Origin: a virus
Taxonomy: Duplodnaviria > Heunggongvirae > Uroviricota > Caudoviricetes
DNA length: 43,322 bases
Strand: one strand, 5' to 3'
IMG/VR virus record: IMGVR_UViG_638341087_000022
Below, in pieces: positions 1,711 to 18,887 of the stretch (position 1 is the stretch's first letter; every line of letters starts with the position of its first letter). Below the pieces are notes generated by a model that was given only the letters and a program-made list of their open reading frames with translations, was not told the DNA's origin and ran no database searches. Both the position numbers and the translations under genes were made by a program.

Positions 1711-2829
1711 TCAGGCCACGTATTCCGGTTTCATATCCGCCAGGGTGATGCTGAATTGATCGTGCAGTTCATCGCCTAAGTGACGCTTTGAAGATGCAAG
1801 CATGCGCTCGGCTTCAGCGAACCGTTCGGCTGCATGCGGCTCGTCGGGCTGGGGCAGGGATTTAATAGCCTCCTCAACCTTGTTGCGTGCATCCACTAGG
1901 TAATAACGCTTTACGGCTTTGTTTTTCAGCTCGGTGAATAGTGCGGATCCCAGCGTAGCTTTCGCCGTTTCAATGTCGGCACGCAGCGATTTGGCGCTAT
2001 CCACGTCCTGAGCAGATTCGATGCGTTCGCGGAAATCATCGGCAAGAGAGTCGACATTTACCGACGATTCCTGTGCGCTTTGCGTGGTTGTGACGGTGTC
2101 ACCTGAGATATCAGCCAGGCTAACGCGTTGCGGCGTTGGGTTGATCTCTTTTTCTGTGCGCTGTTCAATCTCATCAGGGGTGTACACACCAAGAACAACT
2201 GCAGGGCAATATAGGCGCGCCCAGTATTTGAGTGCCAGATAAGCGATCTGCTGTTTCGGGTTTGATACCCAAAGTGGAGAATTACGTGTGATTACGCTGG
2301 AGAGGAAAACAGGCTCTCCCCAGGTGATATCACTTTCACCGCGAATAACGGCACCTACCCGTACCGACAGTCCTTGTTCATCAGCACTTTCCCAACCGCG
2401 TACCATTTCTTTCTTGTCGTACGTCCCGCCACCTTTCGCAGGCTTTTTAACGGTTATCTCGCGGCTGCTGGCACATTTCGACCAGTCGCCCTCGTACTCA
2501 TAGTGAAAGCGGCCAACGATGGCGTTTGAGCTGGAGATCACCGCATTAACCAGTTGCGCTTCGTATCCCAGGACACCGTTAACCAGGTGCGTCTTTTGCG
2601 CCACGGCGTAAGGGTTCATACCCCACTGCATCGCCTGCATGATGATGGCCATGCAGTCTGCCGGATTGCCGCGGAGGTGCTCAGGCACCGTTACGGCTGC
2701 CTGTGCCATCAACCCGGCGACAGACTGAAGCTGGGTTAAAGCCTGCACGTTGAAAATGGCATTGCTGGCTGAGATCGTGTTTGGAGTCTGCTGTTCAGCG
2801 GTTACGATATTCGTGTTTTCCATCATCAT
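1711..2829 (-). CDS. RecT/Redbeta-family single-strand annealing protein (372 aa)
   Basis: Triple ATG start with AAGGGGA RBS; motif QWGMNPYAVAQK parallels lambda Bet QYGLNPWTKE; lies immediately downstream of the RecE-like gene as in Rac/lambda recombination modules. Confidence 0.7.
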   Translation of the reverse strand: MMMENTNIVTAEQQTPNTISASNAIFNVQALTQLQSVAGLMAQAAVTVPEHLRGNPADCMAIIMQAMQWGMNPYAVAQKTHLVNGVLGYEAQLVNAVISSSNAIVGRFHYEYEGDWSKCASSREITVKKPAKGGGTYDKKEMVRGWESADEQGLSVRVGAVIRGESDITWGEPVFLSSVITRNSPLWVSNPKQQIAYLALKYWARLYCPAVVLGVYTPDEIEQRTEKEINPTPQRVSLADISGDTVTTTQSAQESSVNVDSLADDFRERIESAQDVDSAKSLRADIETAKATLGSALFTELKNKAVKRYYLVDARNKVEEAIKSLPQPDEPHAAERFAEAERMLASSKRHLGDELHDQFSITLADMKPEYVA

Positions 2830-2834
2830 TCCCC

Positions 2835-5800
2835 TTATGCCTGAGTACGCAGCGCTTCAAGGCGGCGCAGGTCGAAGTCGTTCAGTTCGTCGGTGTAGTC
2901 AGCAGTGATTGGCGCTGGCCATTCACCTGTGTCGAATCCGGTTGCGATATTGCGCATCGCTTTGCGGTACTCGAGCATACCCAGCTCCAGTAGTTCAGCG
3001 GATGCCTCGATGATGGCGATCCAGTGGTAGTTCTCGTCTTTGTTGACGAAAATCCAGAAGAACTGATCCAGCGCTGCGGTTTCGCAGTACATAGCCGCGC
3101 TCAGGTGATAATCACGTTCAATAATTTCCCGGTGTAGCCTGGCGCGCAGGCTTTCCTGCTTAACATTCCACATGCTGATGGTTTTCAGGTCTGCACCTAT
3201 ACGCACGCCATCCAGGTCGATCTCAAGGTCAGGGCGCACACGAACTTCCAAGCCCGTCTCCTCGTCAAAACCAAAGTAGCTCACCTCAACGGCTCGGCTA
3301 GGGTGGGTCAGCAGCATGCCGGCGGTCGGGTGTGCCAGAAGCGCTTTTTGAATATTCAGCGCGGTGCTCAGCTGCTGGCGGGTGACCAGCACTTTTCCTT
3401 CCGGGTTATCGCGCCAGGCATCCAGCAGTTCGTCGGCAAATACGGCATCTGGTTTGACTGCCTTCACGGCCTGGATCATGTCTGCTTTGGTACCGGACAC
3501 TTTCAGTGGTGCCGGTTTCTGTGCTTCCTGAGCCACAAGGTCAGGGTTGATGATTGCCAACTGCTCCAGCAGCGCGTCACGGCTGCCGCTGGTTTTAACC
3601 GGCGGCGGCAGGGTGGCGTTGTACTCTTTAATGCATGCCTTCATTGCCGTCGCCGTCTGCTTCTGGTCACCATCAATACGCTGGAAGTCAGCTGGCAGCG
3701 CCATATAGGTCTGTGCCGTTTCTTCCAGGTTAGCGCCAAGCGGAACCTGCGGCGGCAGGGTGGCGTTGTACTCTTCCAGTAACACCTTGATGTCGTCGGC
3801 AGACAGCAGCGCCGGCAGGCTGGCATTGTGCTCATCGATAAAGGCGCGCAGGGTCGCGGCCGTTGTGAATGCGCCTTCAGGGATCACCGGTTCAACGCTG
3901 AATTCTGCGTCCAGTAGTTCAGGCTGCAACGCCAGCGCATGCACCAAGTTGCCCATGTCCAGCACCGCTGAGCGCTCTTTGACGATGGTTTTCTCTACGT
4001 GGCGCGCATTGAAGTACATCAGCGAAACGCGCGCATCTTTCACCTGGGTTGAGCTGATGCCGTTGGCGGCGTGGTAAACCTCGTTTGGCAGCCCTTCATA
4101 GCGGCCTGGCTCGAAATAAGCGGGATAAACAACAGCTGGTTCGTCAGATTGCGCTTCTGGCTCGGTTTGTGCTGCAACTGGTTCGGTTTGGCTTACAGAA
4201 TCGCTATTTTTGGCGACAGAATCCGTATTCTGGTTTACATCGTCCTTCTGGCTGGTATCTGACTCTTCACCAGACTCCAGACTGCTTTCGCCTGGCTGTA
4301 CTTCATCACCAGCTTGTTTTTCATCACTGACAGTTTCTTGAACCTGCACATTGCTGGTGGTCTCCGTAGCCTTTTTCGTGCCATGAGTTGCTGAGTTCTG
4401 CAGCAAAGCCGTAACGTCGAATATTCCGTTGCCGACATTTTTAACCAGTTCTTGTTCGACTTTCTGCGGTTGTGCTGCCGCTTCCTCTGCGCGGCGGCGT
4501 GCTCCTTCTTCACGCACGCGTTGCAGGTTCTCTTCGTGAGTGCAGAAGGATTTGCGCGGAGACTCCTTACCTTCAGGTTGGGGAATTTCCTGTGCTGCGG
4601 GTTCAGCCTCATGCAACGGCAATAACTCGACCGCGGAATTGAACGCGGCTGTCATGGTCTGGTTAACAAATTCCAGGTGAGCGACAGGAGTTAAATGAAT
4701 ATTTTCCGGTGCGATACGTACCAGGTTAAAAATAGCCGTGCGGTTAACACCCAGAACGCCTGGCTGATTGCGCAGGATGTTGCTCCATGATTTCCATGGT
4801 TCTTCTTTTTTGGTCACGATTTCTTTAGCGCGACGAAGAATGCTGCCCGGGATCTCGAAGTGGTTGAAGTCCATAGGCAGAAGGGCACACGCAATCTCTA
4901 AATCGAGAGTGTCCAGTGTGTGGTGTGCGTCAGGTCCACGGTCAGTGACGTAACCGCCGTCGGCATTAGTGCCGGAATCAGTACGCTGCACACTACTGAT
5001 GCGATTACCGGCGGCCCATTCGCGAACGAGGATACCGCGGTCGATGTGATCTGTAGCGAACCACAATTTCAAAAACTGGATTAAGGTTGCGAGTTCAGGG
5101 ATTTTTCCATCGACAGGGAAGACTTTCTTAACGGCATTCACGACTTTATGAATATCGTGCTCAATGGCTTTTTTGAATGCTTCCACATTCTCAGCTGCCA
5201 GCAGCAGGTTCTGGACGTACGCGTCATCGGTGTCCATCTCAAGGAGGACAATCTCATTTTTCTGCCCTGCGTCGATGTGATAGAGATATTCACCATCACC
5301 GATGAACTGAGCCAGTACGCGCTGGCGGAATGGCAGGGTGGCAACAACGATCAGGTTCGGTTGCTGTGTCTGCTGGGATTGCTCTTCGGTATCGACTTCA
5401 CCATCAACGACGCCACCTTCTGCCCGGCCGTTCTCGTCGGTCTGGATACCGTCCTCAACAGTGAGATCTTGACCCGTTGTAACGTCAGCAGCGTTGCTGG
5501 TTTCAGTTTTGAGCAACTGCAACTTACCACTGCGCCAGTCTTCTACCAGTTGATTGCGGTCACCGGCATCGGTGTTCACCCAGTCAGACATGAATGCAGC
5601 GATCAATCTTGGTTCGTGCTCTTCGTCTGGTGTGAAAATGTCCTTAACCGCCCGAATCATTTTCCACTCAGCATTCAGGCTGAGTTTGGCGGTCGCGGGC
5701 ACATCGTTCCTTGCCACAAGCAGGCTATGGAGATATGTATTGCCTTCATCCAGTGACATTTCGCTGGCAGCCAACTGCTGCTCTTTAGTGACGTGGGTTT

Positions 5801-6224
5801 GGTATTTATCGTTCATCAGATGGACGGCAAAGCGGACCGCTGGAGTACGGTTTTCAACCGGGACAATTTCGGACGCAGTCGCATCTTCAACGATTACGGT
5901 CGGAGTAGGTGTGTAGGGGGCGTAAACGGAACCAGTAGACACACCAGCGGCTTTTGGCAGCCAGGTGCGCCCATCGTCCTGAAGCTCGTAGCGATCACAC
6001 CAGGTAAAATCAACTTCACCTTCTTTCGGCAGGCCGTCGACAACTGGGAAATCAGTGCGAATCGGTTTGGCGTAGTCCTTACCCCGACCTGTTTCGATAC
6101 CTGCATCTTCCAGCGCAACATCCAGCATCAGATTGGCGCGAGCCTCGGTTTTAGCAGTGAACCAGACCACTGCATCTTGCTTTCCGGATTTCTGAGTGGC
6201 TTTAACCACATTAAAGAATTCCAT
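2835..6224 (-). CDS. recE: RecE-like exodeoxyribonuclease VIII (1129 aa) with internal repeats
   Basis: Very long ORF; C-terminal region resembles the RecE nuclease domain; paired with the annealing-protein gene; contains three EYNA(T/S)LPP-type repeat units. Confidence 0.7.
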   Translation of the reverse strand: MEFFNVVKATQKSGKQDAVVWFTAKTEARANLMLDVALEDAGIETGRGKDYAKPIRTDFPVVDGLPKEGEVDFTWCDRYELQDDGRTWLPKAAGVSTGSVYAPYTPTPTVIVEDATASEIVPVENRTPAVRFAVHLMNDKYQTHVTKEQQLAASEMSLDEGNTYLHSLLVARNDVPATAKLSLNAEWKMIRAVKDIFTPDEEHEPRLIAAFMSDWVNTDAGDRNQLVEDWRSGKLQLLKTETSNAADVTTGQDLTVEDGIQTDENGRAEGGVVDGEVDTEEQSQQTQQPNLIVVATLPFRQRVLAQFIGDGEYLYHIDAGQKNEIVLLEMDTDDAYVQNLLLAAENVEAFKKAIEHDIHKVVNAVKKVFPVDGKIPELATLIQFLKLWFATDHIDRGILVREWAAGNRISSVQRTDSGTNADGGYVTDRGPDAHHTLDTLDLEIACALLPMDFNHFEIPGSILRRAKEIVTKKEEPWKSWSNILRNQPGVLGVNRTAIFNLVRIAPENIHLTPVAHLEFVNQTMTAAFNSAVELLPLHEAEPAAQEIPQPEGKESPRKSFCTHEENLQRVREEGARRRAEEAAAQPQKVEQELVKNVGNGIFDVTALLQNSATHGTKKATETTSNVQVQETVSDEKQAGDEVQPGESSLESGEESDTSQKDDVNQNTDSVAKNSDSVSQTEPVAAQTEPEAQSDEPAVVYPAYFEPGRYEGLPNEVYHAANGISSTQVKDARVSLMYFNARHVEKTIVKERSAVLDMGNLVHALALQPELLDAEFSVEPVIPEGAFTTAATLRAFIDEHNASLPALLSADDIKVLLEEYNATLPPQVPLGANLEETAQTYMALPADFQRIDGDQKQTATAMKACIKEYNATLPPPVKTSGSRDALLEQLAIINPDLVAQEAQKPAPLKVSGTKADMIQAVKAVKPDAVFADELLDAWRDNPEGKVLVTRQQLSTALNIQKALLAHPTAGMLLTHPSRAVEVSYFGFDEETGLEVRVRPDLEIDLDGVRIGADLKTISMWNVKQESLRARLHREIIERDYHLSAAMYCETAALDQFFWIFVNKDENYHWIAIIEASAELLELGMLEYRKAMRNIATGFDTGEWPAPITADYTDELNDFDLRRLEALRTQA

Positions 6225-6363
6225 GTGAGATCCTCATTTTTGGGTGTTAGAATCCCCGGACCATTGATAGCGCCCATTGGGTTAACTTTGGTTTTAATGT
6301 TGTTTCCGGTGTAACTTTGGTCGGTACCACCGGACGTAGATCCCGCCTTGCGCGGGTTTTACG

Positions 6364-6525
6364 TTAGCCTTCGTGAGCCATCTGGTCGTGCGAAGCGCAA
6401 CGTTTGGAGCAATACTCTTTTTCTTTGCGCGCCAGCTGTGAGCCGTTGCGATAGAGAAGGGTGCTCTTGATTACTTCCTCCGTTTTAACCGGCTTGCCGC
6501 AATATCCGCATTTCTTGTCTAACAT
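6364..6525 (-). CDS. Small C4 zinc-ribbon protein (53 aa), not in the ORF track
   Basis: ATG at 6525 with GGAGGA RBS; CGYCG...C..RC cysteine pairs; sits in the position of Rac ydaE between recE and the kil-position gene. Confidence 0.4.
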   Translation of the reverse strand: MLDKKCGYCGKPVKTEEVIKSTLLYRNGSQLARKEKEYCSKRCASHDQMAHEG

Positions 6526-6536
6526 GACATCCTCCG

Positions 6537-6743
6537 CTAGTGGCTGAGTCCATGCCCCAGACCGTTCAGATAAACTTCAACCAGCAAATCCTTGGTGTAA
6601 GTCATTTCTACGCCGCGATGCAGATACAAACGTCCGCGAGCGTTAGCTGATGCCGTCCAGGTTGAGTCTTTGTGTTTGACGAGCATCCCCGGCTGAACTG
6701 CGCCGCGGTTTACTGTCTGTGTACCGTAGTGCTGATGAACCAT
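6537..6743 (-). CDS. Small early-left protein (68 aa), KilR-position
   Basis: Track ORF 6537..6887 begins with TTG; the only ATG is at 6743 and has a GGAG RBS; function not recognisable. Confidence 0.35.
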   Translation of the reverse strand: MVHQHYGTQTVNRGAVQPGMLVKHKDSTWTASANARGRLYLHRGVEMTYTKDLLVEVYLNGLGHGLSH

Positions 6744-6989
6744 GATGTTCTCCAGTTTTTCTGAGTGAACTTCGCTGGTGGTGCCGCGGCGCTGATCTTC
6801 ACGGTTGAGCGTTTTAACTCTGCAATTCACCACCGCGAAGCTCACTCTGTGCTTTGCCCTTGTCGCCAGGCTGGCGGAACGTTTCAAACCTACTGCGCGT
6901 TAATCTCACCACCTCATTCCGGTCTTCGTATGCCCCGGACAGCTTCTTCGTGGGCGTCCTGCTTTGGTGGTTGTGTTGATGGAGTAATT

Positions 6990-7030
6990 AAACACAATGT
7001 TTATTTACGCGTCAACATAATGAGTGTTTT
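6990..7030. promoter_or_regulatory. OL-like operator cluster
   Basis: Motifs AAACACAATGTTTA and CAACATAATG repeat the half-sites found in the cI-cro intergenic region. Confidence 0.35.
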
Positions 7031-7127
7031 TATATAAACAAAAAGTTTAGTTGGTTGCGCTCGTTGGCACGAGTAGTATGTTTTGTGGTCTATTTTGTGG
7101 TTATAAAAAAATCGATGAGGGTGAGTT

Positions 7128-7334
7128 ATGGATCGTGACGAACTGGAAGAAGACCGCGCAGCGTTTATTGCGGGGGAGATTGGTGGCGCAGTTGTCAGTC
7201 TGATAGCTAACGGGATTGTGATCAGCCGCGATGCGATTGTGGATAGTCTAGAGGCTAAGCGCAGGGTAGTGGGAAACGTCATTCACAAGTGGGTATTGCG
7301 GGATGCGGCTGCTATGGTGAGAAAAGGGCAATAA
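7128..7334 (+). CDS. Hypothetical small protein (68 aa)
   Basis: ATG with GAGGGTGAG RBS; ends just before a perfect hairpin terminator; opposite orientation to both flanking operons. Confidence 0.4.
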   Translation: MDRDELEEDRAAFIAGEIGGAVVSLIANGIVISRDAIVDSLEAKRRVVGNVIHKWVLRDAAAMVRKGQ

Positions 7335-7336
7335 AA

Positions 7337-7358
7337 AACCCAGTTCGGTAACTGGGTT
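7337..7358. terminator. Bidirectional intrinsic terminator
   Basis: AACCCAGTT-CGGT-AACTGGGTT, 9-bp perfect stem, flanked by an A-run upstream and a T-rich tract downstream. Confidence 0.55.
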
Positions 7359-7364
7359 ATTGCT

Positions 7365-7790
7365 TTATTCAACAGATGATGGGGGGGTCGGTGCTTTCTT
7401 AAAGATCGACCACTGAGAAATGTAGGTCAGCAACCTTGAGCTTAACTCGAGTTCTTTTTGTAATATTTCGTCATAACGTTTTTTTGCTGCTTGCATGGTC
7501 GCATCACTAGCGTGATTGTCATCCATAATGATCTTTAGCCTTTTCTTTTCTCGGCTTGAGCATATTGTAAATAACAGACCTGTAAATGACATTCCACCAA
7601 AATCCTTTAACGTTTTGATTACAAAAAGAAGAATCAAAGACAGAAAAGGAACAGATCTGTAGGCCCAATCACGAAACTCACCGTCAGGAAAGAAGATAGG
7701 AATAGCATCTGTAGCATAACCACATATGAGGGAGACAATTAGAAAAGGTAGTCCATTTTTAGCTACATTTTTAACGTTATCGTTAGCCAT
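7365..7790 (-). CDS. Membrane protein (141 aa), possible SieB-type exclusion protein
   Basis: ATG at 7790 overlaps the stop of the upstream gene by 8 nt; about three hydrophobic segments in the N-terminal half, charged helical C-terminus; AT-rich. Confidence 0.5.
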   Translation of the reverse strand: MANDNVKNVAKNGLPFLIVSLICGYATDAIPIFFPDGEFRDWAYRSVPFLSLILLFVIKTLKDFGGMSFTGLLFTICSSREKKRLKIIMDDNHASDATMQAAKKRYDEILQKELELSSRLLTYISQWSIFKKAPTPPSSVE

Positions 7791-8166
7791 GATTTTTTCC
7801 CGAGAACGATTTCGAGTCAACATGTAACTTTTGTGTTTTGACTACATAATACGCAAATCCAATCTTAACTAACCAATAAGCTACTGGTATGAGTGCTGCG
7901 TAAAGAGGGATATAGTACATAACCTTACCTCCTGTTAACCACACTATAACACCTAGCATCACTATTAGCGCGACAGAAAATGCTTTCAGCCCAACACAGC
8001 TATCAGGATGTGAAACACTGTTCCTTAGCAACAATATCCTGGATTCATCAAGTGTGTAAGGAATATCGCCAACATGATTTTCGATTTTTGGGAAGGTCTC
8101 AAATACTTCAACCCGATCAATCGAAATAATTGAGCTTGATTGATGATCTAAGCAAACTGCAGCCAC
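7783..8166 (-). CDS. Membrane protein (127 aa; 2 predicted TM helices)
   Basis: GTG start at 8166 with GAGAGGGA RBS, 2 nt after the stop of the upstream gene; C-terminal hydrophobic helices AFSVALIVMLGVIVWL and YYIPLYAALIPVAYWLV. Confidence 0.45.
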   Translation of the reverse strand: MAAVCLDHQSSSIISIDRVEVFETFPKIENHVGDIPYTLDESRILLLRNSVSHPDSCVGLKAFSVALIVMLGVIVWLTGGKVMYYIPLYAALIPVAYWLVKIGFAYYVVKTQKLHVDSKSFSGKNHG

Positions 8167-8168
8167 TG

Positions 8169-8492
8169 TTATCCCTCTCGAACCTTTAGTGATACTCGGT
8201 TAGCAGCAAATGTGGCAATGAAACCACATTCTACACATATAACAGGGAATGCCCATATACCTCGGCCAGCTGAATGAGGTAGAGGAAGGGTAATTATTGC
8301 AGGATAGTCTTGACTATCTTCTCGTGGAGGAACTCCCCAAAGCGTATGCTTACAAAGCGGACAGGCCATCTCGCCATGTTTTTCTTCGAGGCGTTGAAAA
8401 TAATCTCGAAATTCTTGTCTTGATATTGATAGCGTCAATGCTGTTGTATTGACACTTTCCTGACTTTTTTCTTCTTCAACCTGTTCGCCCAT
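8169..8492 (-). CDS. Zn-ribbon protein (107 aa)
   Basis: ATG at 8492; CPLC...CVEC cysteine pairs; first gene after cI, separated from it by a hairpin. Confidence 0.45.
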   Translation of the reverse strand: MGEQVEEEKSQESVNTTALTLSISRQEFRDYFQRLEEKHGEMACPLCKHTLWGVPPREDSQDYPAIITLPLPHSAGRGIWAFPVICVECGFIATFAANRVSLKVREG

Positions 8493-8603
8493 CTCAGCTC
8501 TCAATATAATGATAATTAACTGGTAAGTGAATTTTGCATATCGTTAAGATGTATCCCATTGGTACAGAAACATCTGAGGGGTAAGTAGCTTTTAACTACC
8601 GTG

Positions 8604-8999
8604 CTACTCACCATCCCCCTTAATCCGCCGTCCCATGTACTTGGCGTACAGTTCATCGAGTTCTTTCAACCGTAGAGATACGATCCGCAACATGTTCTGT
8701 TGTTCTTCTTCGTTTGGGAGTTGATTATAGAGTTCCAACAGTCTCCGTTCGTCGTGTCTCAAACCGTCCTTAGCATCCACGTCCTGACCTAGAACCCACT
8801 CAAGACTTACGCCTAGCGCATCGGCAAGTTTTATTGCTGAGCTTTTTCCTATCGCTCCTCTGACAAACCAGTTGTTGACTGATTGTGCGCTCACACCACA
8901 GATTCTCGCTATATCCGCTTTGGATATGCGCTTCTTCTCGATGATTTCATTTAACCGCCGAACCTGCGGGTTATCTGTTTGGTGTGTGTTTTTTCTCAT
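8604..8999 (-). CDS. CI-type repressor, HTH (XRE family), no S24 peptidase domain (131 aa)
   Basis: HTH segment ISKADIARICGVSAQSVNNW; divergent from a Cro-like gene across an operator-bearing intergenic region; too short for a LexA-like autocleavage domain. Confidence 0.7.
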   Translation of the reverse strand: MRKNTHQTDNPQVRRLNEIIEKKRISKADIARICGVSAQSVNNWFVRGAIGKSSAIKLADALGVSLEWVLGQDVDAKDGLRHDERRLLELYNQLPNEEEQQNMLRIVSLRLKELDELYAKYMGRRIKGDGE

Positions 9000-9031
9000 A
9001 TATCAAGATTCTAAACTAAAAGTTTATCGCC

Positions 9032-9072
9032 TCAACATTCATAATGTTGACTTGAACATAAACATAATGTTT
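9032..9072. promoter_or_regulatory. OR-like operators
   Basis: TCAACATTCATAATGTTGA (7-bp inverted arms) and AAACATAATGTTT (13-bp palindrome) between the divergent repressor and Cro-like genes. Confidence 0.5.
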
Positions 9073-9102
9073 AATTTGGTTCGTTATTACTTGGAGCCAA
9101 AT

Positions 9103-9336
9103 ATGAAAGCACTTGATAAAGCAATATGCATCGTAGGGGGTGCAACCCGTTTAGCAGAAAAGCTCAATGTATCCCCAATGACGGTCAGTCACTGGCGTCA
9201 CCGTGACAATGGATTCGTACCGGCTAACCGTGTCATTCCTATTTTCAATGCTACAGGTGTAACTCCACATGAGTTACGCCCTGATTTGTACCTCAACCCT
9301 ACGGATGGATTACCGGCTCAGGAAGCGAGGGCATAA
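9103..9336 (+). CDS. Cro/YdaS-like HTH regulator (77 aa)
   Basis: Internal ATG of track ORF 8872..9336 with GGAG RBS; HTH segment GGATRLAEKLNVSPMTVSHW. Confidence 0.6.
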   Translation: MKALDKAICIVGGATRLAEKLNVSPMTVSHWRHRDNGFVPANRVIPIFNATGVTPHELRPDLYLNPTDGLPAQEARA

Positions 9337-9338
9337 CC

Positions 9339-9878
9339 ATGCAGTCACTATCACTTCATCAAAATAGCGGATATCAAACGGCTGCGATGATAAATCGCAA
9401 TCAACCTGTCTCGGTAGATAAACATGACCAGATCCGCGATGCCGTTCGTGCGTGGGCGGGTGTAGATGGTCAGGATGTCGTTTCTGCTCTGATCATCGAA
9501 GAGTACCAGGCTCAAGGGGGAGACGAGATCACTTTCCCTGATGACCTCAGCCGACAGCGTCAGAAGCTTTTCCGCTTTCTGGATAACCATTTCAACAGCG
9601 AACGGTACCGCGAAAACGTTCGCCAGCTGACTCCGGCAATCCTCGCTGTCCTGCCGATTGAATACCGCAATCGTCTGCTACCAGAAGACAACGTAATGGC
9701 TCGTCTGGCAAGGCTGGAGAAGGAAACCAGCGAAGCGAAGATTGCTGTCGCAATGGATGCGCCACGTCATCAGAAGCTGAAAGAGTTGAGCGAGGGGATC
9801 GTGGAGATGTATCGCGTTGACCCTGGGTTAACCGGTCCGTTGATGGAAATGGTGCAGATTATGCTGGGGGCTATATGA
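9339..9878 (+). CDS. CII-position protein, possibly YdaT-like (179 aa)
   Basis: Immediately after the Cro-like gene and before O; assignment is by position and vague recollection only. Confidence 0.35.
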   Translation: MQSLSLHQNSGYQTAAMINRNQPVSVDKHDQIRDAVRAWAGVDGQDVVSALIIEEYQAQGGDEITFPDDLSRQRQKLFRFLDNHFNSERYRENVRQLTPAILAVLPIEYRNRLLPEDNVMARLARLEKETSEAKIAVAMDAPRHQKLKELSEGIVEMYRVDPGLTGPLMEMVQIMLGAI

Positions 9879-9962
9879 CCGGTTCAAAAATGGCGAAAGC
9901 CGCGGTGCTCGAACACCAACGGCTTTCAGGTGCAAAAACAGTGCGTAATTGCGGAGAACAGT

Positions 9963-10871
9963 ATGTCAAACACCGCTGAAATAATCAATTTCCCAAATAA
10001 AACCGAACAACCGGGAGGTCGTATGGCCGACCTGTCGAACGGGTATACCAAGGTCGCTAACGAGATCCAACAGCTTAAGCCTCGCCTGAGACTGTCAGGC
10101 CGGGAATGGCAATGTTTTGAGGCGGTGATCTGGCTTACCTACGGCTGGAACAAGAAACAGGACCGCGTGACAAATACGGTTATTGCCGAGCTTACGGGCC
10201 TGAGCGATACGCATGTATCGGACGCGCTTAAGTCTCTCGCAGAACGCAAAATCATCTTTTCACAGAAGCAGGGCATGATGAAAATCGTCGGTGTAAACAC
10301 TGACCTTTCAGCATGGATTTTAGACAAACCGGAAACGGGAAGAAAATTCCCGAAAACGGGAAAATCCTTCCCGAAATCAGGAATAACCTTCCCGAAAACG
10401 GTAGACACCCAATACAAGAACAAGAACAGTATTAAAAGATCTTCGTCCGAGAATTCTGACGAATCCTCTGACGCACGTCTGAAGAAATTTTTATCAACTC
10501 ATCCTGAAGCTGCGGTCTACACACCATCCGGTGCGAAGTGGGGCTCTGCTGAAGACCTCGAGACAGCTAAGTGGATTTCCTCCAGGGTGAAGCTGATTAA
10601 CCCAACCTGCAAAGCCCCGGACATGACCTCCTGGTCTAACACTGTTCGCCTGATGCGCCAGATAGACGACCGGTCGCACCAGGACATCTGCGCGCTGTAT
10701 GACTGGGCTAGCAAACACCACTTCTGGCAGACCAACATCCTGAGTCCCGAAAGCCTGCGTAAGCAGTGGGACAAGCTGACAATGCAGCGTAACGCCGGAG
10801 GTGAGCAGCGCGCTGTCAAGCCAGATCTGGACTTCAACAACACTGACTGGGCCTATGGGGTGATCCGATGA
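9963..10871 (+). CDS. O: Replication initiator, lambda O-like (302 aa)
   Basis: N-terminus NTAEIINFPNKT and TYGWNK..DR match lambda O; iteron repeats are embedded in the coding sequence. Confidence 0.8.
   Translation: MSNTAEIINFPNKTEQPGGRMADLSNGYTKVANEIQQLKPRLRLSGREWQCFEAVIWLTYGWNKKQDRVTNTVIAELTGLSDTHVSDALKSLAERKIIFSQKQGMMKIVGVNTDLSAWILDKPETGRKFPKTGKSFPKSGITFPKTVDTQYKNKNSIKRSSSENSDESSDARLKKFLSTHPEAAVYTPSGAKWGSAEDLETAKWISSRVKLINPTCKAPDMTSWSNTVRLMRQIDDRSHQDICALYDWASKHHFWQTNILSPESLRKQWDKLTMQRNAGGEQRAVKPDLDFNNTDWAYGVIR
10326..10445. repeat. Replication origin: four iterons plus AT-rich tract inside O
   Basis: Four repeats of the TTCCCGAAAACGGGAA type followed by an AT-rich tract; same pattern as lambda ori iterons. 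Confidence 0.6.
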
Positions 10872-11557
10872 AATCTCTTGCAGAGCAGATGCGTAACCAC
10901 GACCGCGAGCAGATGAGCCGCATGGCCCATAACCTGCCAGAGCAGTACCAGGAGTGCGCGCCGGTCGAGCAGGTGGCGCAGGTATTCAACAAGCTGTTCA
11001 ACGAGCTGCGCGCCGCGTTCCCGGCCAGCATGGCGAACTTCCGCACCCAGGAAGACCTGAACGAATTCCGCCGTCAGTGGCTGCTGGCGTTTCAGGAGAA
11101 CGGGATCCACACCATGGCTCAGGTCGATGCCGGCATGCGCATTGCCCGCCGCCAGGAGCGCCCATTCCTGCCGTCGCCGGGCCAGTTCGTCGCCTGGTGC
11201 AAGCAGAGCGGCGGCGCGCTGGGCGTCAACGTTGACCAGGTGATCGCCGAATACTGGGACTGGCGTAACCGCTCGTTCGAATTCATCTCCAGCGAGCAAT
11301 TTCCATGGTCGCAGCCGGTCATGTACCACATTTGCGTAGAATTGCGCCACCGCAGCACCGAGCGCCAGTTAACGCATGGTGAACTGGCACGCGAGGCAGG
11401 CGATCTGCTGGACATGTGGGAAAGGCGCGTCACCGAGGGTAAGCCAGTGCCGCCGGTACGCCGGGCTATTGCCGCACCAGCTGCCGAGCAAGGGCCGACG
11501 CCGATCCAGCTGCTGCTGGCCAAGTACAACCGCAACAAGTCGAACGGGATGGTGTGA
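10868..11557 (+). CDS. P: Replication protein P (helicase loader), lambda P-like (229 aa)
   Basis: Strong colinear match to lambda P, e.g. RPFLPSPGQFVAWC; ATGA overlap with O. Confidence 0.85.
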   Translation: MKSLAEQMRNHDREQMSRMAHNLPEQYQECAPVEQVAQVFNKLFNELRAAFPASMANFRTQEDLNEFRRQWLLAFQENGIHTMAQVDAGMRIARRQERPFLPSPGQFVAWCKQSGGALGVNVDQVIAEYWDWRNRSFEFISSEQFPWSQPVMYHICVELRHRSTERQLTHGELAREAGDLLDMWERRVTEGKPVPPVRRAIAAPAAEQGPTPIQLLLAKYNRNKSNGMV

Positions 11558-12494: not shown

Positions 12495-12514
12495 TACTGT
12501 ATAAAAACACAGTA
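12495..12514. promoter_or_regulatory. LexA (SOS) box
   Basis: TACTGTATAAAAACACAGTA: perfect CTGT-N8-ACAG, 19 bp upstream of the DinI-like start codon. Confidence 0.65.
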
Positions 12515-12532
12515 AATGCAATGGGGGCCATT

Positions 12533-12766
12533 ATGAAAGTTGAATTAACCATTGATCGCATGAAAGAACTTCCTAAAGGCGCAGTACCAGCACTGGAGAA
12601 AGAACTGCTTAAGCGCCTGAATGATCACTATGACAATTGCAGGCTCACAATCCGCCGTGCCGGGGCCGATGGGTTAAGTGTTTTTGGTGGTGACAAGGAC
12701 GATAAAAAGAAAATTGAATCAATCCTCCAGGATACCTGGGAAAGCGCTGACGACTGGTTTTATTAG
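12533..12766 (+). CDS. dinI: DinI-family protein (77 aa)
   Basis: C-terminal ILQDTWESADDWFY matches E. coli DinI; GGGGG RBS; LexA box upstream. Confidence 0.8.
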   Translation: MKVELTIDRMKELPKGAVPALEKELLKRLNDHYDNCRLTIRRAGADGLSVFGGDKDDKKKIESILQDTWESADDWFY

Positions 12767-12883
12767 AATTGCGCTTAAGGCTGGCGCGCATTTTTCAGAA
12801 TACCGCAATTTGCGTAACCCTCTGATGCTGCTGCCGACAATCTTTAATCGCGTCTGTTAGTCGCTCGAAGGGAGAACATAAAT

Positions 12884-13132
12884 GTGAGTGATTCAGCTTT
12901 GCAAACGTCAGAAGACAACTGGTATGACATTGTAAGAAGGTCTGACGGCTGCGTGGTGTTTAGCTTTCCTTCATCGGGCAGGCATCTAATTTATCGCGTC
13001 AATGGCATGGTTTCTATGCGGCCTTTGCTGGATGATGAAGAGGTCTTTACTCCTAATGGTTTTATGCAGTTTATTCACCGTCTCGGCTACCGGGTAACCC
13101 CACCTTCTGATAATATGAAATCAACGGTCTGA
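12884..13132 (+). CDS. Hypothetical protein (82 aa), downstream of the DinI-like gene
   Basis: GTG start in the ORF track; no terminator between it and the DinI-like gene, so it may be co-transcribed under LexA control. Confidence 0.4.
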   Translation: MSDSALQTSEDNWYDIVRRSDGCVVFSFPSSGRHLIYRVNGMVSMRPLLDDEEVFTPNGFMQFIHRLGYRVTPPSDNMKSTV

Positions 13133-17834: not shown

Positions 17835-18887
17835 ATGAAAAATACTGTAAATATAAACAGTGTTGAGTTAGTCAACGCTGATAGCCTGCAATACATCGCC
17901 ACTCTCCCTGATAACTCCATTGACCTGATAGTCACGGATCCGCCGTACTTCAAAGTGAAACCCAACGGCTGGGACAATCAGTGGAAAGGGGATGAGGATT
18001 ATCTTCGCTGGCTTGATATGTGCCTCGCACAATTCTGGCGAGTGCTTAAACCTGCTGGCAGTCTTTATCTTTTCTCCGGTCACCGCCTGGCGGCAGACAT
18101 TGAGATCATGATGCGTGAGCGGTTCAACGTCCTGAACCACATCATCTGGGCTAAACCGTCGGGCCGCTGGAATGGCTGTAATAAAGAGAGTCTGCGCTCT
18201 TACTTCCCTGCAACAGAGCGCATCCTCTTCGCTGAGCATTACCAGGGGCCGTATAAACCAAAGAGCGACGGTTACGCGGAGAAGGGAAGCGAGCTGAAGC
18301 AGCATGTAATGACTCCCCTAATTTCTTATTTCCGGGATGCACGTGAAGCGCTTGGCATAACCTCAAAACAAATAGCCGATGCGACTGGAAAGAAGAACAT
18401 GGTGTCTCACTGGTTCAGCGGTAGCCAGTGGCAATTACCGAATGAATCAGACTACCGGAATCTTCAGTCCCTTTTCACGCAGGTAGCCATCGAAAAGCAC
18501 CAGAACGGCGAACTGGCAACACCACACCACCAGCTGGTGGCTATGTGGCATTCTTTAAATCGCAAGTATTCAGAGCTGCTCGAAGAGTACAAATCGCTTC
18601 GGCGGCATTTCTCTGTTTCCGTATCCGTTCCTTATACCGACGTCTGGACACATAAAACCGTTCAGTTTTACCCAGGTAAACACCCATGCGAAAAACCCGC
18701 TGACATGTTGCGGCAGATCATCAACGCCAGCAGTAAGCCTGGTGATGTGGTGGCTGATTTCTTTATGGGGTCCGGTTCGACCGTGAAAATCGCGCTGGAA
18801 CTTGGCCGCCAGGCTATCGGCGTTGAACTCGAGGAGGACAGGTTTAGCCAGACGGTGGAGGAAATAAGGGCGTTAACAGGGGAATAA
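17835..18887 (+). CDS. DNA methyltransferase, N6-adenine/N4-cytosine type (350 aa)
   Basis: DPPY catalytic motif near the N-terminus (IVTDPPYF) and AdoMet-binding motif near the C-terminus (DFFMGSGST); no adjacent restriction gene. Confidence 0.8.
   Translation: MKNTVNINSVELVNADSLQYIATLPDNSIDLIVTDPPYFKVKPNGWDNQWKGDEDYLRWLDMCLAQFWRVLKPAGSLYLFSGHRLAADIEIMMRERFNVLNHIIWAKPSGRWNGCNKESLRSYFPATERILFAEHYQGPYKPKSDGYAEKGSELKQHVMTPLISYFRDAREALGITSKQIADATGKKNMVSHWFSGSQWQLPNESDYRNLQSLFTQVAIEKHQNGELATPHHQLVAMWHSLNRKYSELLEEYKSLRRHFSVSVSVPYTDVWTHKTVQFYPGKHPCEKPADMLRQIINASSKPGDVVADFFMGSGSTVKIALELGRQAIGVELEEDRFSQTVEEIRALTGE

Follow-up and report, generated by a model that had tools for sequence, protein, structure and literature searches.

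A stretch of 43,322 nucleotides from a virus of the class Caudoviricetes (IMG/VR record IMGVR_UViG_638341087_000022; hereafter the window) was analysed around a 68-codon open reading frame (ORF) on its plus strand, at 7128-7334. The window is a Rac/Gifsy-like lambdoid prophage, and the ORF lies at the left edge of its immunity region, between the left operator and the repressor operon. Judged by its pattern of substitution among relatives, the ORF is clearly a protein-coding gene under strong purifying selection, and it is inherited jointly with a promoter-like element and a hairpin as a cassette of approximately 300 bp. The gene product has not been characterised before; it is a conserved phage version of the AriR/YmgB connector fold, encoded in a fixed slot beside the immunity region, and does not amount to a new kind of system. 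We give about even credence to the reading that the cassette is a self-contained, moron-like accessory unit, whose AriR-like product binds a host signalling protein and is expressed in the lysogen for lysogenic conversion. The annotation of the gene was 'hypothetical protein' wherever it was seen. The parts of the cassette are listed here.

7128-7334, plus strand: protein-coding gene of 68 codons; its product is a predicted three-helix AriR/YmgB-like protein
7096-7121, plus strand: the cassette's own upstream element, including the ribosome-binding site (RBS); consensus TG.TATG[C/G/A]T.A.AAAAACA.CA..GAGGG from 13 aligned operator-region types, here TGTGGTTATAAAAAAATCGATGAGGG
7051-7079, plus strand: candidate ORF promoter specific to this immunity group, with TTGGTT (7051-7056), 17-nt spacer and TAGTAT (7074-7079), with a predicted start at about 7086; proposed from conservation
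7327-7358, minus strand: putative intrinsic terminator of the repressor operon, with the hairpin at 7358-7337 and a U-run at 7336-7327 that overlaps the ORF stop and last codons
7337-7368, plus strand: the same hairpin read on the ORF transcript, as its putative 3' end or a weak terminator, with the tail ATTGCTTTAT

The ORF runs from an ATG at 7128 to a TAA at 7332-7334, with an RBS (GAGGG, 7117-7121) 6 nt upstream of the ATG, and it overlaps no neighbouring gene. As 79 ORFs of at least 30 amino acids (aa) overlap the 7-kb span 4000-11000, the size of the ORF is meaningless by itself, and it was conservation that identified it as a real gene. The product matched PHROG 3975 (function unknown) over 68 of 68 positions (E 1e-34). 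Its homologues formed 578 clusters, mostly of 68 aa, from Salmonella, Citrobacter and E. coli, and the exhaustive homologue search gave 54 representatives at 50% identity. The length was 68 aa in 83 of the 85 loci, and the start codon and RBS were also kept. For the 54 distinct alleles found in these 85 loci, the median pairwise ratio of nonsynonymous to synonymous change (dN/dS) was 0.07 (1113 allele pairs), at a dS of about 1.1, which is near saturation. Scans of the product against Pfam, NCBIfam and PADLOC found nothing.

A first-pass annotation, made from the letters of the window, had described a small gene with a good RBS, reading against two flanking leftward operons and followed 2 nt past its stop by a perfect 9-bp hairpin, and all of these features are present. 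It had also named a lack of conservation in related prophages as grounds for dropping the gene, and the opposite was found, given the PHROG 3975 match, the 578 clusters and the dN/dS of 0.07. Its suggestion of an anti-sense element did not survive. The selection is of the protein type. In addition, transcription is predicted to start at about 6980 from the left promoter PL, running leftward, and at about 7086 for the ORF, running rightward, so that the two transcripts diverge and would not overlap. The accompanying suggestion of a small regulator was broadly upheld, although the fold suggests a signalling connector that binds proteins, of the AriR/YmgB kind, and not a DNA-binding phage regulator. 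An antisense ORF of 93 aa (7001-7282, minus strand) was dismissed as a candidate gene, being of low complexity and opposite the frame on which strong purifying selection acts.

An AlphaFold2 model built from a 34-sequence alignment had a mean predicted local distance difference test (pLDDT) score of 93.2, with helices at residues 3-27, 34-47 and 51-66, that is, the three-helix fold of AriR (PDB 2oxl). When a profile of 30 diverse members was compared with PDB sequences, 2oxl was the sole match below E 0.01 (E 1.5e-4, 48 residues). Alignment of the family by hhalign, against either AriR alone or an AriR alignment, gave E 2e-5 and a probability of 76-77% over 48-49 columns, and the reciprocal check of AriR against phrog_3975 was weak (E 0.039). 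Residue R58 of the window protein was aligned with R74 of AriR by both hmmsearch and hhalign. It lies within the conserved LRDAA motif of the family, and an arginine occupies this column in 22 of the 30 diverse members. R74 of AriR, a conserved surface arginine in helix 3, is required for SpoT binding and essential for the SpoT activity, and is not needed for Rcs activation (PMC10704370). A Foldseek comparison with viral structures (BFVD) returned nothing significant. The ORF product is thus predicted with high confidence to adopt the YmgB/AriR three-helix fold, with a detectable sequence relation.

By sequence comparison, the cassette is common to phages with unrelated operators, repressors and antitermination systems. 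It occupies a fixed slot just right of the outermost left operator, where it points away from PL and converges on the repressor operon, and at least 13 upstream (operator-region) sequence types carried it. A homologue was present in the slot in 80 IMG/VR prophage contigs. The same position and orientation were found in HK225 (66% identity), phi80 (41%) and HK639 (40%), as well as in a phage with lambda-like operators and cI, and in Gifsy-like Salmonella prophages with ParA or HipA_2 cargo. Salmonella ATCC14028 has a homologue of 91% identity beside parA/gfoR-type repressors, a locus type represented by L087 and L088. The repressors of the carriers differ (cleavable CI versus the short RacR/Gifsy type), as do their antitermination systems (N, put RNA, or none).

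In phi80 (NC_021190), an unannotated 69-aa homologue is encoded at about 33348-33557 (2998-3207 of locus L003) and matched PHROG 3975 with E 7e-35. It is placed between OL3 and gene 40A and shares the RBS, the upstream element and the terminal hairpin. The reference annotation of phi80 thus lacks the gene altogether. Among prophages of Salmonella and Citrobacter, the gene is very common. The phage with lambda-like operators (locus L078; IMGVR_UViG_2876513427_000004, 1873-4356) has lambda-like OL and OR, a cI of 237 aa and cro, and its cassette protein bears a 6-residue N-terminal extension. A 134-aa ORF stands in place of rexAB, which holds this position in the lambda layout.

Homology stops abruptly past the hairpin. 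The right neighbour was on the opposite strand at 82 of 83 loci, and its identity varies by phage; the cargo types on this side include membrane ORFs, HK97 gp48/49-like genes, 40A, HicAB, ParA and HipA_2. Rac has sieB in the equivalent slot. In E. coli WEM25 (NZ_CP061530, locus L086), which has the same OL, the DNA up to the ATG is approximately 96-97% identical to the window over 233 aligned bp. Its slot holds a divergent 64-aa allele (L086 3229-3423), which hhalign aligned to the family with a probability of 96%. The WEM25 locus has the appearance of an allelic replacement that starts at the start codon. As this allele also matched PHROGs 33151 and 3946, several 'unknown' PHROGs are probably one AriR-like superfamily. 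Altogether, the cassette was present in about 17 of 5426 complete E. coli genomes.

The hairpin (7337-7358) consists of AACCCAGTT and AACTGGGTT around cggt, a perfect 9-bp stem located 2 nt after the ORF stop. It was detected on both strands by the terminator scan, and folding energies of -18.1 and -17.3 kcal/mol were obtained, with z of approximately -5 on each strand. Of the T-runs that follow it, the one on the minus strand (TTTTATTGCC) is good and the one on the plus strand (ATTGCTTTAT) only marginal; the former is encoded by the ORF stop codon and the A-run that follows. Of 46 distinct contexts, 42 retain the hairpin, and changes in one arm of the stem are compensated in the other (CCCAGTT/AACTGGG in the window, CCCGGC/GCCGGG in other contexts). 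Tails with five or more T were found in 32 contexts on the minus strand and in 16 on the plus strand. The mean number of T in 8 nt was 5.4 on the minus strand versus 3.7 on the plus strand, whose tail is not conserved in relatives. Because only the minus-strand T-run is conserved, the main conserved job of the hairpin is very probably to stop leftward transcripts of the repressor operon short of OL/PL, and we infer that it also supplies a stable 3' end for the ORF mRNA. The first-pass annotation had the hairpin terminating in both directions. This agrees with the scan on both strands, but a consistent T-run exists on the minus strand only. Its proposal that the cI operon is insulated here from the early-left operon is plausible in view of the retention of the hairpin and of the minus-strand T-run. 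The design is compact, as one hairpin fused to the stop codon of a gene would terminate the repressor operon.

Control of the ORF was considered in relation to the left operator and PL, which are context and not part of the cassette.

6989-7049: left operator cluster, with TAAAC-N5-GTTTA at 6989-7003 and 7035-7049 and a middle site at 7012-7028
6987-7015, minus strand: putative PL, TTGACG (7015-7010), 17-nt spacer and TTTAAT (6992-6987)

The window contains exactly four copies of the operator motif TAAAC-N5-GTTTA (at 6989, 7035, 9012 and 9059), two at OL and two at OR, with spacings of 46 and 47 nt. With up to one mismatch allowed, 0.85 matches were expected and none of 100 shuffles reached four. 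PL is an inverted copy of PR (TTGACT-17-TTTAAT, 9047-9075; an inverted repeat), and its -10 coincides with the annotated phi80 pL -10, inside a common GATGGAGTAATTAAACA stretch. The third left site (OL3, 7035-7049) falls within the interval covered by the first-pass annotation, which had proposed that expression of the gene may be controlled by the repressor.

The -35-like TTGGTT of the candidate promoter is 1 nt from OL3. The sequence TAGTATGT (7074-7081) was invariant at 24 nt past OL3 (23 nt in two cases) in 13 distinct sequences with at least seven unrelated GC-rich spacers. The upstream element of the cassette would correspond, we infer, to an extended -10 and the 5' untranslated region. 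Its extended -10-like part reads AAAAAATCGA in the window versus AAAAACATCA, and this downstream hexamer is mostly degenerate in the window's operator group, as if the upstream promoter had replaced it there. Between the two candidate promoters, a direct repeat, TTTTGTGGT(c/t)TA, is present in two copies (7082-7093 and 7094-7105). The latter bears the A-to-G change that inactivates the -10-like hexamer, and the pair may reflect a small duplication or conversion. A sigma-70 scan of 6700-9200 found no plus-strand promoter at threshold. As the same scan also missed PL and PR because of their TTTAAT -10, the promoter calls rest on conservation and not on the scan.

No operator overlaps either candidate core promoter, the nearest ending at 7049. 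Repression by occlusion is thus not expected, and simple repression of the ORF promoter by the phage repressor is unlikely. The centre of OL3 is calculated to lie about 44 bp upstream of the predicted start, so that a repressor bound at OL3 could give PRM-like activation at most, or have no effect. Measured up to the hexamer, the last operator was 31.5 bp away in phi80, 35 or 41 bp in the L031 group, 49 bp in the L078 group, which is lambda-like, and 32 or 54 bp in the window. A universal coupling of operator and promoter across immunity types was ruled out by these varying distances; the spacing is fixed only in the window's operator group. As the distance varies from 31.5 to 49 bp elsewhere, the promoter would be a feature of the cassette and not of the immunity system.

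In the accessory-cassette reading, the gene is probably expressed in the lysogen, because no operator covers the candidate promoter, and this expression might be aided by the repressor at OL3. The protein would, like AriR, bind a host signalling protein and modulate Rcs and/or SpoT. The benefit would lie in lysogenic conversion, such as protection from other phages by way of the capsule, or a change in stress tolerance and growth, and the shared hairpin would serve mainly the leftward repressor operon and also the 3' end of the ORF mRNA. The mechanism of AriR involves the RcsC histidine kinase domain (PMC6900184), and its action is RcsF-independent (PMC11709261). AriR also binds the TGS-Helical region of SpoT, which leads to accumulation of guanosine tetraphosphate (ppGpp) (PMC10704370). 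Overproduction of colanic acid driven by Rcs, with mucoidy, confers broad phage resistance on E. coli (PMC7553319). The link to AriR turns an anonymous ORF into a testable hypothesis, namely that a prophage has direct access to the Rcs phosphorelay for envelope stress or to the SpoT/ppGpp stringent response. The link also suggests a phage origin of the E. coli ariR gene cluster. Salmonella is reported to be without a complete bluR-bluF-ycgZ-ymgAB unit (PMC3509220). If this unit is incomplete, the prophage copies might be the sole AriR-like proteins of Salmonella, and capsule, biofilm, acid tolerance and persistence could be affected, as could resistance to superinfecting phages. The gene was not covered in the ST313 prophage paper.

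Several observations weigh against this reading. The window protein had no match to Pfam PF10798 at E up to 1, and only two of 30 relatives had one (best E 0.016). The homology to AriR is remote, with an hhalign probability of only about 76%. Approximately 30 N-terminal residues of AriR, with the conserved YF motif, have no counterpart in the window protein, and the phage protein starts at about the equivalent of residue 17-20 of the aligned core. No YcgZ or YmgA paralogue is adjacent to the ORF, and hhalign comparisons with YmgA and YcgZ were insignificant; AriR is reported to act on RcsC together with both proteins. A three-helix bundle is a simple fold, and 2oxl was seen by AlphaFold2 in training. 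The TTGGTT/TAGTAT promoter agrees with the consensus at 7 of 12 positions, is below the scan threshold and is a weak assignment, and the usual -10-like hexamer of the cassette is degenerate here (TGTGGT at 7096-7101 versus TATGGT, A to G at position 2). The rarity of the cassette in complete E. coli genomes argues that its benefit is not universal, and no paper was found that mentions the family or that links AriR-like proteins to lambdoid phages. Given the missing PF10798 match, the short N-terminus and the lack of YcgZ/YmgA neighbours, the protein is best described as a distant, phage-encoded variant within the AriR/YmgB fold family and not as a PF10798 member.

A wider version of the proposal was thought unlikely. 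It holds that a dedicated AriR-like connector is widespread at the border of the immunity region in lambdoid, Gifsy-like and Rac-like prophages, with its promoter coupled in a PRM-like manner to the repressor at OL3, that lysogeny reprograms Rcs and/or SpoT-ppGpp signalling through it, and that ycgZ-ymgA-ariR are its domesticated descendants. The carriers would be phi80 and probably Gifsy-1 and Gifsy-3 of Salmonella. If true, the prophage would change the growth rate of its host, its capsule and biofilm and its susceptibility to phages, and perhaps also the decision between lysis and lysogeny.

The genes flanking the cassette, whose products are relevant to the alternatives, are the following.

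2835-6224, minus strand: RecE, leftward from PL
6364-6525, minus strand: YdaE, leftward from PL
6537-6887, minus strand: Kil (PHROG 294), leftward from PL, the left flank of the ORF locus
7365-7823, minus strand: ORF of 152 aa, the convergent last gene of the repressor operon; no family match, variable cargo outside the cassette
8604-8999, minus strand: repressor of 131 aa, helix-turn-helix (HTH) only, lacking a cleavage domain
9103-9336: YdaS-type Cro

Three leftward ORFs of 152, 127 and 111 aa, one of them hydrophobic, lie between the hairpin and the repressor (7365-8504), and the stop of the first is 7 nt from the hairpin. No significant Pfam, NCBIfam or PADLOC match and a single partial PHROG match were obtained for them. 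Their position is equivalent to that of rex and other exclusion cargo, and the content is different in every related phage. A PRM-like promoter (TTGAGG-16-TAGAAT) is present on the minus strand at 9035-9008. With only 8 nt between it and the repressor ATG (8999), the repressor mRNA probably has little or no leader, as is the case for lambda cI.

Further away, a perfect LexA box (CTGTATAAAAACACAG, 12497-12512) stands directly upstream of a DinI homologue (12521-12766, PHROG 189), which is followed by an 82-aa ORF (12884-13132, PHROG 340). The layout of this module (12497-13132) is that described for LexA-controlled Gifsy antirepressors and suits a 131-aa repressor with no cleavage domain. The second CTGT-N8-ACAG site (CTGTAAATATAAACAG, 17845-17860) is at the start of a 350-aa methyltransferase-like ORF with a DPPY motif (17835-18887); the two sites in the window compare with 0.5 expected. 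An Rfam scan of 6200-9400 gave nothing above threshold, only sub-threshold matches at chance level. One of these, to isrB (28.6 bits versus a gathering score of 35, E 0.02), lies in the recE/ydaE interval (6266-6362, plus strand); isrB is a Salmonella island small RNA (sRNA), and the match is probably due to chance. An alignment of the Rac sRNA KilS region with the PL leader of the window was not convincing.

It is improbable, to about the degree of the wider version above, that the protein is instead a phage-internal regulator that tunes the lysis-lysogeny switch, either as an antirepressor bound to the prophage repressor or by binding Cro/CII. The gene does adjoin OL at the edge of the immunity region in every phage examined, the HTH-only repressor lacks a cleavage domain and therefore needs an antirepressor, and the antirepressors of Gifsy prophages are small and can act on non-cognate repressors (PMC3121763). 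Nevertheless, the family stands beside unrelated repressors (the cleavable CI of phi80, HK225 and the lambda-like phage, and the short RacR/Gifsy type), and its fold match is AriR and no known antirepressor. There is no LexA box near 7000-7130, the only CTGT-N8-ACAG sites of the window being those at 12497 and 17845, and a Gifsy-type LexA/DinI/82-aa ORF module is already present. The published Gifsy antirepressor genes are beside dinI, outside the immunity region (PMC3121763). An antirepressor was rejected as the leading explanation on the grounds of the missing LexA box at the ORF and the separate dinI module; for the Gifsy-type LexA-controlled form, neither a LexA box nor linkage to dinI was found at the ORF. 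Somewhat less probable still is a role in superinfection exclusion or defence together with the leftward neighbours (7365-8504), parallel to that of sieB, which in Rac fills the equivalent slot, with kilR on one side and the racR operon on the other, and also reads on the strand opposite PL. The adjacent ORFs have no family assignment and one is hydrophobic, while the region downstream of cI is known for exclusion genes (rex) and has HK97 gp48/49-like genes in HK225. Such a dedicated partnership is unlikely because these neighbours are fully replaced between phages while the ORF stays constant; moreover, PADLOC gave no matches, and the soluble three-helix protein is unrelated to SieB.

Slightly lower again we place a nucleoid-associated or DNA-binding modulator, Hha-like and interacting with H-NS, that would adjust silencing of prophage or host genes. 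The protein is small and helical with a basic C-terminus (RKGQ), and YmgB was reportedly described by Lee et al. in 2007 as a structural relative of Hha that influences acid-resistance gene expression. Least probable of all, and by far, is that the ORF is incidental and that only RNA or DNA features (an antisense or insulator transcript, the terminator) are functional. Small ORFs do arise by chance, and the hairpin is conserved and looks functional. Against this, dN/dS was 0.07 with saturated synonymous change, the start codon, RBS and length (83 of 85 loci) were conserved, and the predicted fold was confident. No opposite-strand gene or predicted transcript covers the ORF, the antisense 93-aa ORF being of low complexity. 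An antisense or regulatory RNA was likewise set aside as a candidate, with no gene overlap, protein-type selection and no Rfam family at threshold in 6200-9400.

Compared with known systems, the accessory-cassette reading places the gene closest to E. coli AriR/YmgB (PDB 2oxl, PF10798), a small connector with approximately 19-23% identity to the window protein. AriR belongs to the four-gene ycgZ-ymgA-ariR-ymgC operon controlled by BluR/MarA/RpoS, whereas the window gene is single, with its own promoter-like element and terminator. In genomic placement, the nearest parallel is sieB of Rac, lambda and P22, an accessory gene directed against PL. In Rac, it has the slot (kilR/PL to the racR operon) and orientation of the cassette, and both are accessory genes outside the PL/PR circuitry. 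SieB is a membrane-associated exclusion protein of approximately 160-190 aa, unrelated to the soluble three-helix product of 68 aa, and no esc/sas-type antisense arrangement was evident at the ORF.

The terminator of the lambda immunity region, tImm, ends the cI-rexA-rexB transcript before OL. The window hairpin, which follows the last repressor-operon gene by 7 nt and precedes OL/PL, shares this position and presumed role, and it has the features of a tImm-like intrinsic terminator (a GC-containing hairpin and a minus-strand U-run directly after the last operon gene). Unlike tImm, it is physically joined to a convergent gene, with which it is inherited and whose stop codon gives part of the U-run, and it is symmetric enough to serve both strands. 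The Gifsy antirepressors GfoA, GftA and FsoA are likewise small proteins of Gifsy/Rac-like prophages with non-cleavable repressors, and the window is such a prophage; their genes, however, are beside dinI under LexA, or in the Fels-1 left operon (PMC3121763), whereas the ORF is without a LexA box and faces away from PL.

The cassette resembles a moron in being a compact unit with a terminator and a promoter-like element of presumed function, patchy among related phages. It would carry its own promoter and terminator, and its dispensable, patchy nature is seen in the presence of sieB in Rac, in the divergent allele of WEM25 and in its occurrence in about 17 of 5426 E. coli genomes. To our knowledge, it is absent from lambda itself, and lambda was not among the tblastn matches of the ORF. 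Unlike typical morons, which are scattered and found in late regions, the cassette keeps one position relative to OL across immunity types, and its gene is among the most positionally conserved accessory genes at the left edge of lambdoid immunity regions.

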